From a bacterium (lineage in GTDB: Bacteria; Oederibacteriota; CAKKQC01), in NCBI GenBank assembly GCA_919901855.1, contig CAKKQC010000008.1, forward strand, positions 91,616 to 155,615: a stretch of 64,000 nucleotides of DNA, read 5' to 3'. A program made the position numbers. Positions 46,401 through 52,400 of this stretch are shown here, piece by piece; positions within the stretch are counted from its first letter, which is position 1, and every line of letters starts with the position of its first letter.

Positions 46401-49400
46401 GGACCCGGCCCATCGCCGCCATCGCCTCGTGCATGTCTCCCGACAGCCACGTCGACAGCCGCCGCTTGTTCAGTTCGTTGACCTTCCGGTCCTCGTGCCG
46501 GAGCTTGAGCGCGATCGCGCGTTTCGCGTAGAGATCCCGCCAGGCGTCGATCCGTCTTTCCGCGCCGCGGATCAGCGGCATCAGCGCGAACCCGGCCGGC
46601 CTGACCAGGCCGGCCCACCGGACGAGGTCGGCGACTGATTCGTCGATGCGGGCGCTGGCCGCCCGGTAGGACCGGAGCGCGTCGGTGTTTCCCGTGGCCA
46701 GGTAACTCTGGCAGTGCATCTCCGCCTCGGCCACGCCCTGCGACACCCCGGCCGCGCTGCCGAGGACGTTGTTCTCGAGCCGCGCCGCGCCGGACGTCGC
46801 GCGCGTGTACGCCAGCGCGCAGACCGCCGTGAGCGCGAACCCCAGGGCTGCGGCCGCGACGGGGCCGCGCAGGGGGAGATGCATCAGGCGCCGCACGAGG
46901 CGTTCCCGGGCCATAGCAGCCGGCCCCGCTCCGCTGTCCATGTCGTTGCCCCTCCCGGTCCGCGCATGGCGCCAGCCTCGGCCTGTGCCTGCCTGGAAGG
47001 CCGACGGCTGCCACGCAGCGGTTATTGGCCCCGGTCTGGTATCCTGCCCCTGATGAACAAACACCCGTCTCTCCAGGACCGTTTCCGCGGATGCATAGCC
47101 GCCAGTTGGGCCGGTTCGGCCATGGGCGCCGTCGTCGAGGGCTGGCCCCGCGAGAGGGTCGCGCGGACCTACGGCGTCCTCGACCGCCTCCTCCCCTACC
47201 GCCACTACGTCGAGGAAACGAACTGGAAGCGGCTCGCCGGCACTACCGAGGACGGCATCGAGCGCCAGAAGCTCATCGCGACCGCGATCATCGAGAAGCA
47301 GGACCGGATTCTGGCTCAGGACCTCGTGGCTGTCTGGGTCCGCGATCTCGAGCCGCGCAAGATGACGTACAAACAGGAGGCCTTCGACCGGTCCCTGCTC
47401 GAAATGGCGCGGGCGGGTGTGCCGCCCGTCGAGCTCGGCCGGCTCTGGCCCTACCCCAACGTCGTGTCGATGGCGCGGGCCTCCCACCCGCTGGGCCTGA
47501 TCAACGCCGGCGACCCCCGGGGGGCCGCCGACGACACGATCGAGGTCGGCAAGGTCTACGGCAAGGAGACCTACTTCGGGCTGCGGTGGGGCGCCCTCTA
47601 CAACGCGGCGATCGCGCATGCCTGCACCCCCGGCGCTACCGTCGAGTCCGTGCTCGCGACCGCGCGCGAGTACGCCGGCTACCGGGCCGAGTCCGCGAAG
47701 CTGTTCGCGCGGTACGACACGATCCGGCACGACCTCGACCAGGCCCTCGAGTTCGCGCGCCAGGCCCGGGACTGGCAGGACCTGCGGGAGAGATTCGACA
47801 CCGTATATTTCGGCGGCGGCTACTTCAACTACGGGATGGCGCAGGCGAACGAGATCGTCGCCAAGGGGATCGGCCTCTTCGCGCTCTTCCGCGGCGACCC
47901 GAAAGCCGCGATCATCGCGGCCGTGAACTTCGGGCGCGACACCGACTGCCTCGCGGCGGTGGCCGGCGGGCTCTCGGGGGCCTTCTCCGGCGCGCGCAGG
48001 ATCCCGGCCCAATGGATCGCGCAGGTGAACCGGGCCACGAAAGCGGACCGCTACACGAACAACCGCCGCACGATCGAGCAGACGTCCGCGGGGCTGCTGC
48101 GGGCCTTCCGGGCCAGGCAGGCGCGCCTCGCGTCGTGGTCGAGGAAGATGCGCTGATGCGGAACTTCGTTCTTCACAACCCGGTCGAGCTGGTCTTCGGA
48201 AAGGGCCAGATCGCGAAGCTGCCGGATCTCGTGCCGCCGGGGGGCAGGATCATGATGACCTGGGGCGGAGGGTCGATCAAGGCCAACGGCGTCCGGGACC
48301 AGGTCCTGGTGGCGCTTCGCGCCCACGACGTGATCGAGTTTCCGGGCATCGAGCCCAACCCCCAGTACGCGACGCTCATGCAGGGCGTGGAAACTGCGCG
48401 GCGCGAGCGCGTTACGTTCCTGCTCTCGGTGGGCGGAGGCTCCGTCCTCGACGGCACGAAGTTCATCGCGGCCGCGCTGGAATACCACGGCGGCGATCCG
48501 TGGGACATCCTCGAGAAGGGAGTGGCGGTGAAGGCGGCGATGCCGCTGGGGGCGGTCCTGACCCTGCCGGCCACGGGGAGCGAGATGAACGGGAACGCCG
48601 TGATCTCGCACGCCGAGAAGAAGCAGAAGCTCGCGTTCTCGAGCGACCTGGTCATGCCCCGGTTCTCGATCCTGGACCCCGAGACGACGTTCACGCTGGA
48701 CGCGCGCCAGACTGCTAATGGGATCGTGGACACGATGGTCCACGTCTTCGAGCAGTACCTGACGAAGGACGTCGGGAACCCGCTCAACGAGGGGATCGCG
48801 GAGGCCATCCTGCGCGTCACGATCGACAACGGCCGGCTCGTCCTGTCCCGCCCCCGCGACTACGACATCCGGGCGAACCTCATGTGGTCCGCGACCCTCG
48901 CCCTCAACGGCCTCATCGGGCTGAACGCCTCTCACGACTGGACCAGCCACGGCATCGGCCACGAGCTGACGGCCTTCCACGGCCTCGACCACGGCCAATC
49001 GCTCGCCGTCGTCTCCCCCAACGTCCTCCGCTACCGATCGGTCGCGAAGCGGACGATGCTGGCACGCTACGCCCGGCGCGTCTGGGGCGTGGACGAGCCC
49101 GACGACACCCGGGCCGCCCTCGTGGGAATCGACCGCACGGTGGATTTCTGGGACGCGCTCGGCGTCAAGACCGCGCTGTCCGACTACGGCGTGCACGCGA
49201 CTCATTTCGAGGAGATCGCCGAGCGCCTCGGCGGGGGCGACCGGCGGCTGGGCGAGGACGGCGACATCGCCAGGTCCGACATCCTCAATATCCTGAACCT
49301 GTGCCTCTACCCCCCCCCCCTTGGGGCCATACTTAACAAATTAACATTCTCACGCCCGGGGCAGTTTGTTGCGGGCTCCCTCGGGGAGCAGGGCGCCGCG

Positions 49401-52400
49401 CGTGGCGCTCTTCGACACCCCCGCCTCCGTGATCCCCAATCGTCGTGCCACCATGACCCCGCTGTAGCCCAGCCGCCCGACCAACCAGTGACAGGCCAGG
49501 GCCCGAGCGCGCACTTGCGCCTGCCGCTTCCCCGATCCCGTGATGTCCTTGACTCCGATGCCCGCCTTGCCGGCGGCCAGGGCGATAATGCGTTCCAGTG
49601 TGACGCCGTGCCGTCGGGCCCTGCTTCGCCACCGCTCCTGCTCGTCGGCGGCTTTCAGGGCGCGCTCCACGAATCCGGCGCTCCCCAGCAAACGCTCGTC
49701 CGCAGGCACCGCTTCCTTTCCTCGCCCAATCCGCAAGGTCTCCCATCCCCCCGCATCCAGATGTCTCAAGCTCTCGCCCGGCAATTGTCGGTCGGGAGCT
49801 GCCTTGAGACCCTCGCGGCAGAACGCTTCATACGACGCCCGGGCCGACGCAACGCGGACACCGAATTCCTCGAGAACCGTGGCCGTGTCCTGCCAGGGCA
49901 GTTGATCCTTTCCCAGCAACGCGCGATGACCGGTCCAGGGATACCTCTCCAGCTCCCGCAGTCCCGAACAGAGCCCGGCGCGGACCGGATTGAGGTGGAT
50001 GTAGCGGACCAGGGCAAGCAGATACGGTTCCGCTTCGCAGAGGATCGATCTATAGCGTCCCTGGAACAGATGACCGCTCCGCCGCCATCGCCGGTTGAAC
50101 GTCACCGCGTAGCTCGTGAACAGACGCTGCAGCACGCGAGCGAGCGGAGCGACTCCGGTCTGCAACAGTAGATGGATGTGGTTGGGCATGAGCGCCCACG
50201 CGACACACCTGGTCTTCGTCTCCGCGAAGACCATTCCGGCATGATCCAGGAATCGCCTGTAATCCGGAGGATCGAGGAAGATTGCTCCGCGATCCATCCC
50301 TCGCTGCATCACATGATGCAGAGCGCCGGGCGCATCCAGACGGTTTCCACGCGGCATGGCTCATTCTGACGAGCCACGTGCCGGCCTGTCAAGGGAATGT
50401 TAATTTGTTAAGTATGGCCCCAAAGGTGGCCCCAGAGGTTAGCGGGCAGGGGCGCCCTTTTCGGCCTGCGCCGTGCCGCGCGCCGCCATCCGGCAGTCGC
50501 TCATGCTCTTGTGGCAGCACTTCATGCACACGACGTGCAACACCACCGCGAGTACCAACCCCGCCAGCACTCCCCAGAAGAAATTCCCGCCACAACATCC
50601 GTGCGAATGACCTTCAACCTTCTTTGCCATGTGTCCAGCTCCTCCTTGTGATTCTCGAAATGACTAAGCCTTCTTGGCCGCCTTCTGATACGGCTTGAGC
50701 TTCTTCGCCGCGAACGGCCATTCAATGCGCGCGAGCGGGAGCTTGAAGCCCTCGCCGGCCAGCACCTCGCGCCGGTTCGGCCCGTTGAGGTCGATAATGT
50801 CCGCGATGTACTTCTCGTAAAGAGCCTTGTCCACCATCATCCCGTCCTTCGACAGGATGGGCCGCTCCGGCGTGCCCAGGGTCTTGAGCGACTTCGTCAT
50901 CGCCTTGCTCCCCTTCACCGAGTCCGCGACCGTGTTCAGCGGCGTAACCCCGGTGTCCGCGCACTTGCCCGACTGGAGGGTGACCATCACCCCGTCCACG
51001 GGGCCGGGCCCGAATGCGAGGTCCGCGGCCTTGACCCCCACCGCGATCGCGTCGCGGAAATCCGGCTCCGACATGATCTCGAGGTTGTTCCGGTTGAGGT
51101 AATCGGGCCCCTCCGCCCGCGTCTTCATGCTCGAGAAGACGCCGGTGGGCACCTTGAGTTCCTTCTCAATCAGGAGTTTGAGGAATAGCGCGACGCGCCC
51201 GTCCGAGACGCTCGTGTTCTTGTGCGCGTCCGTGTGGACCTTGAACTGCGTGTCGAACTTCCGGCACGCGACCTCGAGGTGGTACCCCAGGTACTGCTCG
51301 CCGTCGTGCGCGCCCTCGGAGGCCACGACGAAGAGGTTTCCGTACTTGTCGTATGCGTCCTGGCACCTGGCGAGGAAGGCGTCCTTATTGAACCCGCCCT
51401 CCTTGGTCAGGATCACGTGCGGCCCGTACGAGTCGTCGATTTTCGCCATGACGCTCGCCGCCGCGCCCCAGCCCTCGTCGCGCCCCATGAACACCGCGAC
51501 CTGCGAGACCGCGCCCTCGCGCAGGGCCCCGCCCCGTGTGGCCCCAACGGGGATGCCGAACGCGTCGATGTCGCCCTGGAGGCTCGCCGTCACCAGCGCC
51601 ACCTGCTTGGCGAACGAGGCGTACCCCGGGCACCGGTGCGTGACGAGGAGGTCGTTGTCCACGGTCTTGGGAATGCCGATGACGTGCAGCTCGTAGTTCT
51701 GCTTCTTCGCAAACTCGGACAGGATGATCGCCTTCTCCTGCGTGTCGTTCCCGCCGTTGAGGAAGACGTAGTTGACGCCGTGCGCCTTGAAAAGCTCCAT
51801 CAGGCGCTCGCAGTCCTCGTTGTCCGGCTTGTGCCGCGAGGTGCCGAACACGGGGGTCGCCGGCCACTTGAGCCGGTTCATGCGGCTCGCAGCGCCGCCC
51901 CCCCCGTCCTGGAGCGCCCAGCCGAAGACGTCCACGACGTCCTCGTTGAGCGCGCCACGCATGCCGCCGACCGCGGCCAGGAAGGTGCCGACCTTGTCCC
52001 GGTACGCCTCGAAGGTCCGGTGAATGAGTCCGTACGCGCTCGCGCTTATGACGGGGGTCCCGCCCCCGCCCATGACGTACATCGCATTCGGCTTGCCCAT
52101 GGCTGCCTCCCTGCGTGGCCGCTGAAAGCCGGCCAGCCCGAATAATCTACCACGGCGCCCGGCCGGCGGGTTCTGGCGCCATCCCCGGTCCGAACCGACC
52201 GTGGTAGGCTGGTGCGGCCATGTTCGACACCCCACTCGCCGTCTTCCGCCGCGTCTTGGACCGGCTGACCGCGCCGCACCCGGCGATCACCTCCCCCGAG
52301 GACCGGGACGGCGCCCGGCTCTTCGCCATCCTCATGGTCGCGCAGGTCGTCGTCGTCTTCGCGGTCCTGCTCGCCCTGAACCTCGTCCCCAGAGCCGACG

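Follow-up and report, generated by a model that had tools for sequence, protein, structure and literature searches.

RAYT-like genes that lie between long inverted repeats other than REP sequences have been termed TIRYTs, and the units that they form with these repeats TIRtrons; in the TIRtron sections of that work, the repeats have a common GGGGWSAS motif and are found singly, as dimers, or in groups (Di Nocera, De Gregorio & Rocco, 2013; PMC3733652). In their account of subclass 2.1 of the TnpA_Y1 proteins, Quentin et al. (2018; PMC6006769) placed 20 of 26 TIRYT proteins in this subclass, described for it a C-terminal domain resembling Bac_DnaA_C, HTH_23, or HTH_28 and no REPs nearby, and equated it with the TIRYTs. 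The same account doubted that the helix-turn-helix (HTH) domain recognizes the repeats, since the GGGG motif is unlike a DnaA box. Here, we analyzed a stretch of 64,000 nucleotides from contig CAKKQC010000008.1 of a bacterium of the Oederibacteriota (the window, to which positions refer unless another contig is named). In our best reading, to which we give a probability of roughly 0.8, positions 49321-50423 are an autonomous TIRtron, with one TIRYT gene of the HUH/Y1 type between two 29-nt terminal inverted repeats (TIRs, or arms). In kind, the element is one already described (TIRtron/TIRYT, TnpA_Y1 subclass 2.1).

An earlier note on this DNA, made from the sequence alone, had proposed a 1.1-kb unit between perfect inverted 27-mers, and a search for this 27-mer bore the proposal out. 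GGGGCCATACTTAACAAATTAACATTC occurred at exactly four sites in the window, 45282 (+), 45315 (−), 49323 (+), and 50395 (−), and not once in 100 dinucleotide-preserving shuffles of the window. The gene-flanking pair was identical over 29 nt, with TT...AA included, and matched at 33 of 35 positions when extended to 35 nt; the ends of the unit are the ends of the repeats. On the 3' side of the gene, the TIR (49321..49349, + strand) is an exact match to TT followed by GGGGCCATACTTAACAAATTAACATTC, and its inner end abuts the TGA stop codon (49350-49352, minus strand); on the 5', or promoter, side lies its perfect inverted partner (50395..50423, − strand). The arms read GGGGCCA-TA-CTTAACAA-ATTAACAT, that is, a G-rich outer tag followed by an AT-rich inner part with two tandem 8-nt repeats. 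A second copy of the terminal tag, TGGCCCCA, was read from the sequence at 50427..50434 (− strand), 12 nt outside the first copy (50415-50422). The GC content of the arms was 37%, compared with 69.5% for the whole window, in agreement with the earlier description of AT-rich repeats in a genome of about 70% GC. The only open reading frame (ORF) between the arms encodes a protein of 335 aa, and neither a second gene nor tnpB was found inside the unit. No direct repeat flanking the unit was found in the analysis of target sites and duplications, short-read assemblies of the locus break at the arm, and an Rfam scan of the whole window gave no match, so that its palindromes correspond to no known RNA.

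Comparison of related loci showed that such units move as a whole. On two contigs of one metagenome-assembled genome (MAG), loci L037 and L039, the element was 100% identical, and identity fell to about 35%, the background level, within a few bases outside the tags. The window element and a unit from another organism (L091; GC content 0.65, unrelated neighboring genes) were 84% identical over 1103 nt, and this similarity ended exactly at TGGGGCCA on both sides. The same drop in identity at the ends of the element was observed for pairs from different genomes, and several copies of the family were present per MAG in relatives.

The gene (49350..50357, − strand; 335 aa), defined by its ORF, Pfam match, alignment, and structural model, encodes a protein with the motifs NHIHLLL (H60 and H62), GHLFQGRYRS, and VRYIHLNP (Y119). 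Residues 1 to about 125 form the HUH/Y1 nuclease (H60, H62, Y119), residues from about 125 to 250 a helical middle region that includes a conserved unmodeled linker (GGW 203-205, DER 220-222), and residues from about 250 to 328 an HTH domain resembling domain IV of DnaA, with a predicted recognition helix at 311-323. The Pfam search for Y1_Tnp, which the earlier note had suggested, gave 30.3 bits against a cut-off of 23, and H60, H62, and Y119 were invariant in an alignment of 117 family members. An AlphaFold (AF2) model built from this alignment had a mean predicted local distance difference test score (pLDDT) of 83. When the model was compared with the PDB using Foldseek, the best match was E. 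coli TnpA_REP on a REP hairpin (4er8_A; E 4e-6, TM-score 0.72 on the target), followed by the transposases of ISDra2, IS608, and IS200; the description of a 335-aa, RAYT-like HuH Y1 protein with NHIHLLL and GHLFQGRYRS therefore holds. The DnaA-like HTH tail that had also been proposed was found at the level of the family and the fold: the family profile matched DnaA 2z4r (E=0.006), the C-terminus of the model superimposed on the DNA-binding domain of DnaA in complex with a DnaA box (3pvp) with a root-mean-square deviation of 1.5 Å over 69 columns, and individual relatives matched Bac_DnaA_C (13 of 27) or HTH_23 (five). For the 335-aa protein alone, the Bac_DnaA_C match was weak (E=0.2). The linker at residues 194-222 had a pLDDT below 50 and yet contained the invariant or nearly invariant residues GGW 203-205 and D220-E221-R222; the conservation of residues that could not be modeled suggests a functional motif.

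The family is large. More than 5,400 matches of about 335 aa were obtained among 8,000 scored candidates, most of them unnamed and some named RayT or transposase in IMG, and at least 535 loci were confirmed in GTDB genomes. Eighty loci with homologues of 38-48% identity, mostly from Desulfobacterota MAGs but also from NC10, Nitrospirae, and others, were taken from GTDB contigs with one genome per species; 72 of them had enough flanking sequence. An inverted repeat of 16-40 nt surrounded the gene in 58 of these 72 testable loci, with ungapped inverted-repeat scores of 15-30 compared to 6-11 for the direct-orientation control of these 58 loci (one control reached 14), and several further loci had shorter arms of the same type. 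In relatives, some 55-60 nt lay between the start of the left arm and the ATG, and the right arm was placed at or over the stop codon. When arms were anchored by the search pattern GGG[AG][CA][GA], they read GGGACG at the outer end, with A, C, and G at positions 4-6 in 93-98% within the range allowed by the pattern, and were AT-rich thereafter. Within the AT-rich part, identity at a lag of 8 nt was 0.58 compared with 0.33 in shuffled sequence (z ~20), and no other lag was prominent; by this periodicity, each arm consists of a tag and two tandem 8-mers. The tag is GGGGACG in most relatives, against GGGGCCA in the window, and GGGGACGY in a large Desulfobacterota clade, while closer relatives (53-67% identical) bear GGGGCCAT, GGGGTCAT, or GGGGACAT.

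In many family members, two to four tandem copies of the tag (GGGACG or TGGGGCCA) lie directly beyond the inverted repeat. These tandem outer tags were present at L011, L013, L027, L037/L039, L042, L045, L058, L083, and L099 and in the window at 50415-50434, and a doublet of arms without a gene (L087) also bears the duplication, which may be a trace left by the reaction or reflect a preferred target. A plasmid protein search gave 13 partial matches of low identity, none of them full-length, and so provided no evidence that the subfamily is carried on plasmids.

The earlier note had taken the locus for a REPtron-like unit as opposed to an IS200/IS605 element. The second half of this claim agrees with the layout, which has no hairpin within a single arm; the first half holds in spirit, with the refinement that the arms are long, non-palindromic TIRs and not REPs. 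A true REPtron would consist of a domesticated, vertically inherited, single-copy RAYT that is itself immobile and spreads only the flanking REPs or REPINs. TnpA_REP is indeed the closest solved fold, the NCBIfam model REP_Tyr_transpos (NF047646) matched with an E-value of 2e-17, several relatives are named RayT in IMG, and the window holds one copy of the gene beside a REPIN-like doublet that lacks it. However, the NCBIfam score (63.4 bits) did not reach the equivalog threshold of 80, neither arm is palindromic by itself (folding z +0.8 and −0.3 relative to shuffles) or carries a tag of the GTAG type, and the codon usage of the gene is unlike that of the host, with a GC content at third codon positions of 0.75 compared with 0.93 in the neighboring genes. 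The complete units duplicated at 100% identity within one MAG, and the homologous unit in the different organism and context of L091, are also at odds with an immobile gene. We consider a true REPtron unlikely.

We next consider the relationship between the protein and the repeats. In 55 family members sorted by arm, 196 variable protein columns were compared with the repeats by excess mutual information. Residue K316, within the predicted recognition helix, ranked first for both the first 8-mer (1.87 bits; next column 0.84) and the second (1.36; next 0.86), and 15 of the top 20 columns were located in the C-terminal domain. For the spacer between tag and repeats, K316 was not the top column, and the HTH positions G300 and V301 led. 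The identity of residue 316 followed the 8-mer: K with TTAAC, L or F with TTTAG, Y with TAAA or TAAG, R with ATG or GTG, I or V with ATAAA, Q with ATTG, S with TCAG, and E with TCGG. Alignment by hhalign paired K277, T310, A312, and K316 with R399, D433, T435, and H439 of E. coli DnaA, where H439 is a base contact. K277 is nearly invariant; covariation with the repeat is found at T310, A312, and K316. R399, D433, H434, and T435 have been given as base contacts of DnaA (PMC13451751, citing Fujikawa 2003). Taken together, the sequences make a good but not conclusive case for a division of labor in which the HTH would bind the lineage-specific 8-mers and the conserved tag would be left to the conserved Y1 domain. 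With regard to the doubt raised by Quentin et al. (PMC6006769), whose argument on this point compared only the GGGG motif, the present data suggest that the HTH reads the AT-rich 8-mers and not the tag.

One of the arms also lies next to the promoter. A sigma-70-type promoter, TTGACA-18-CAGAAT (50363..50392, − strand), matched the consensus at 10 of 12 positions (0.2 expected) and was the sole promoter-like site in the region; its −35 box begins two bases inward of the 5'-side repeat, and in many relatives, too, TTGACA comes right after the left arm. A gap of 5 nt separates the end of the −10 hexamer from the ATG, so that the TIRYT mRNA is probably leaderless, and no clear ribosome-binding site was seen at 50357-50368. 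Automatic gene callers placed the start further downstream (294 aa), and the 41 residues omitted in this way are conserved in the family.

Copies of the arms were also found apart from the gene. At 45280..45343, both arms face each other head to head as exact matches across a 6-nt spacer, GTTGGC, without a gene between them; folded as single-stranded DNA (45270-45353), this doublet forms a 29-bp hairpin (−34.4 kcal/mol, z −11.7). Of the two further repeat sites named in the earlier note, 45282 falls in this doublet, and near 7877 the 27-mer was absent even with up to three mismatches; what lies there (7872..7931) is an imperfect doublet that belongs to a related repeat family and has diverged, with 71% identity to the window arm. 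Its arm, GGGGACGTGCTTAAAAAATTAAATTGC, bears the GGGGACG tag that is canonical in most relatives, and the doublet folds with −13.4 kcal/mol (z −2.4).

The 27-mer is not unique to this locus, with four arms in the window and others on further metagenome contigs. A scan of metagenome contigs with the 22-nt core of the arm retrieved 11 further stretches, comprising doublets, single arms, and one full element. Eight of the 11 came from the same Hainich groundwater assembly as the contig of the window (Hain_H43_02um_R1_22, 159,535 bp, coverage 19) and had similar coverage. Judged by a phosphofructokinase of 100% identity, the host of the window element is a Candidatus Coatesbacteria MAG. Three stretches were head-to-head doublets with the spacer G-NNNN-C (L087, L088, and L090), one was the full element in another organism (L091), and the others were single arms, often several in the same orientation, among toxin-antitoxin, XRE, and AAA-ATPase genes. 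The core had no match in the GTDB contigs with one genome per species; extra cognate arms, single or paired, were present near several relatives. The spacer pattern common to the doublets could not have arisen by merely deleting the gene from the full unit, whose inner flanks are CC... and TC..., and for this reason the doublets look like a lineage that was copied as doublets.

Some of the Hainich stretches are mosaics of short common repeats (L086 3111-3338, L092 6044-13290, L093 9544-10746, and L085 2256), surrounded by genes for toxin-antitoxin, nucleotidyltransferase/HEPN, PIN, XRE, and AAA-ATPase proteins. The single arms in these mosaics all point in one direction, each followed by a conserved module with a small hairpin, GTCCGC-CACC-GCGGAC, and in L086 arm and module recur in tandem with a period of 121 nt. 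Integron attC sites were considered, since the core-site pattern is matched by ACTTAAC/GTTAAGT and toxin-antitoxin genes surround some of the solo arms, but they were rejected: half-sites and not whole sites flank the gene, the arms are perfect palindromic partners, and they track the Y1 gene throughout the family. Beside the doublet of the window, at 45200-45280, the repeats truncate a short ORF whose start (MTTTNAVQEFMDRIVSHNPGEPEFHH) we take to resemble the N-terminus of glutamate dehydrogenase. A tblastn search of the window with an E. coli GdhA query found no match to the remainder of this ORF, which points to loss or rearrangement of DNA at the doublet.

The dispersed copies, the promoter, and the covariation also bear on a second alternative, in which the element is an immobile relic, its repeats serve mainly as operators for autoregulation by the HTH protein, and the other copies are decaying remnants. 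A repressor and its operator would be expected to covary just as the HTH and the repeats do, and the start of the −35 box two bases inward of the left arm, the degenerate doublet at 7872, and the lack of an empty site or junction for the window copy would all be in keeping with such a relic. An operator accounts for the arm at the promoter but not for a second, identical arm right at the stop codon, as seen in no fewer than 58 loci, and it leaves unexplained why the unit boundaries coincide with both arms and why perfect 29-nt arms and perfect doublets occur elsewhere. The catalytic HUH and Tyr residues would also not be expected to stay invariant in 117 sequences, and we regard the relic as quite improbable. 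A classical IS200/IS605 insertion sequence, with subterminal hairpins at dissimilar ends and only incidental inverted repeats, is extremely improbable: despite the Pfam Y1_Tnp match and the ISDra2, IS608, and IS200 transposases as next-best folds, neither end contains a significant hairpin, the ends are identical inverted copies, tnpB is absent, the protein is over twice as long as TnpA(IS200) and has an extra HTH domain, and the repeat-gene-repeat layout is kept throughout the family.

For the autonomous TIRtron, we propose the following mechanism. The DnaA-domain-IV-like HTH of each protomer would bind the 8-nt repeats and thereby give each lineage its own end specificity; at the left arm, the same binding would probably also autoregulate the promoter, since the −35 box begins two bases inward of this repeat. 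Binding would position the Y1 domain for a cut of one strand at or beside the tag, with a 5'-phosphotyrosine link through Tyr119, and the element would then move by a single-strand route like that of IS200/IS605. Doublets without a gene, such as 45280-45343, may form hairpins in single-stranded DNA and act as non-autonomous passengers mobilized in trans, in analogy to REPINs. We infer the strand and position of the cut, the single-strand route, the autoregulation, and the mobilization of doublets in trans; what the analysis shows are the boundaries of the unit, its movement as one piece, the layout kept in the family, the anatomy of the repeats, the covariation between HTH and repeats, and the fold assignments.

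Several points weigh against the TIRtron reading or parts of this mechanism. With inverted ends, the strand that bears the tag at one end is not the one that bears it at the other, which does not simply fit the same-strand cleavage of IS608; either the arms may pair in single-stranded DNA, trivially in doublets and across a 1-kb loop in the full unit, so that both junctions come to lie at the base of the stem, or the two ends may be nicked on different strands. Two HTH domains on duplex DNA would not usually be spaced by 8 nt. The excess mutual information of residue 316 comes from a statistic that ignores shared ancestry, and its sole control is the far lower values of other, equally variable columns. 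No target rule emerged: CCTCT(T) lies just outside several arms, only a minority, and purine-rich GAAGA precedes some. For the window copy, neither an empty site nor an excision junction was found, as all eight of the long-enough contigs with the neighboring 63-aa gene carry the element. The tag GGGGCCAT matches only six of eight positions of the GGGGWSAS motif given in the TIRtron sections of PMC3733652; relatives at 53-59% identity, with GGGGACAT or GGGGTCAT, match seven of eight. Finally, the literature holds no biochemistry on TIRYTs, the term being confined to two computational works (PMC3733652 and PMC6006769).

On a more tentative level, TIRYTs could constitute a mechanistically distinct class of HUH transposons, in which the HTH would bind lineage-specific tandem 8-nt "iterons" in duplex terminal repeats and deliver the Y1 domain to an invariant G-rich tag beside them, residue 316 would largely set the specificity, and the outer tags would be footprints of cleavage; we regard this as possible but short of probable. 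If it is true, the logic of the system would resemble that of Rep/relaxase origins more than that of the IS200/IS605 and RAYT systems, which are guided by hairpins. Taken singly, the locus is an ordinary insertion of a known but obscure type of element. The family matters more, as it is very large and experimentally neglected and breaks the rule that Y1 transposases recognize hairpins. The anatomy of the repeats and their pairing with a residue of the protein offer a way to address how a single-strand nuclease is joined to a duplex-binding domain, and whether elements of this kind could be re-targeted.

For annotation, the arms lead to assembly breaks and errors in gene calling, as seen for the alcohol dehydrogenase (ADH) gene next to the element (48156-49307). 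Its homologues are all 384 aa long and end in ..MCL-stop. In the window, the stop codon is lost; TA and a run of 11 C directly precede the repeat (49305-49322), and the ORF continues through the element to 50171, so that one gene caller gave a fusion of 671 aa. In other assemblies of this junction (L103-L105), TAA is followed by C7 or C12, and the difference at the stop codon reflects either heterogeneity within the population or misassembly of the homopolymer. Homopolymer runs directly border the outer side of an arm at two independent sites, C11 in the window (49310-49320) and G8 beside the L090 doublet (L090 7238-7250). Elsewhere in the window, an unrelated AT-rich perfect palindrome, ATATTGCAAGATATTGAC, with a 6-nt spacer (25592-25640; −19.3 kcal/mol, z −8.0), overlaps the start of the ORF 25596..26405 (+) and could be an operator or belong to another repeat family. 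A GC-rich direct repeat of 64 nt with 84% identity occurs at 15394-15457 and 56420-56483, 41 kb apart.

Compared with the systems described so far, the window element agrees with the TIRtrons, as set out in the corresponding sections of PMC3733652, in its RAYT-like HUH/Y1 gene, its long non-REP TIRs, the fixed distances between repeats and coding sequence, the GGGG-type outer end, and the occurrence of arm copies elsewhere as singles, dimers, and clusters. It resembles subclass 2.1.2 of TnpA_Y1, as characterized in the pertinent part of PMC6006769, in its long Y1 protein with a C-terminus like Bac_DnaA_C or HTH_23 and in the absence of REPs from its vicinity. The TIRYT descriptions in these two works (PMC3733652 and PMC6006769) did not include the 8-nt tandem repeats, the HTH covariation, or identical units in several copies.

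With E. coli TnpA_REP and its REPtron, the window element shares the best N-terminal structural match and a gene placed between inverted copies of a dispersed repeat, and its doublets form long hairpins as REPINs do. REPs, by contrast, are short self-hairpins with a GTAG-type tag, and the window arms have neither feature; TnpA_REP has 165 aa and no HTH domain; and a RAYT gene is typically present once per genome and passed on vertically, whereas the TIRYT family includes duplicated whole units. The background on REPtrons, REPINs, and TnpA_REP reportedly goes back to Nunvar (2010), Ton-Hoang (2012), and Bertels & Rainey (2011). The common HUH/Y1 fold and catalytic residues make the IS200/IS605 elements (IS608, ISDra2) the likely model for single-strand cleavage and joining, from which the window element differs by its identical inverted ends, its lack of subterminal hairpins and tnpB, and its additional DNA-binding domain. 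TnpA(IS200) is a single-domain protein of about 130-150 aa, often accompanied by tnpB, compared with the 335 aa and three regions of the window protein. DnaA domain IV on DnaA boxes (3pvp, 2z4r) provides the C-terminal fold and the aligned contact positions; unlike DnaA, the window protein has no AAA+ domain and is associated with lineage-variable 8-nt tandem repeats instead of the TTATCCACA box. At a conceptual level, this combination may be likened to the HUH Rep proteins, which bind iterons beside a nick site.

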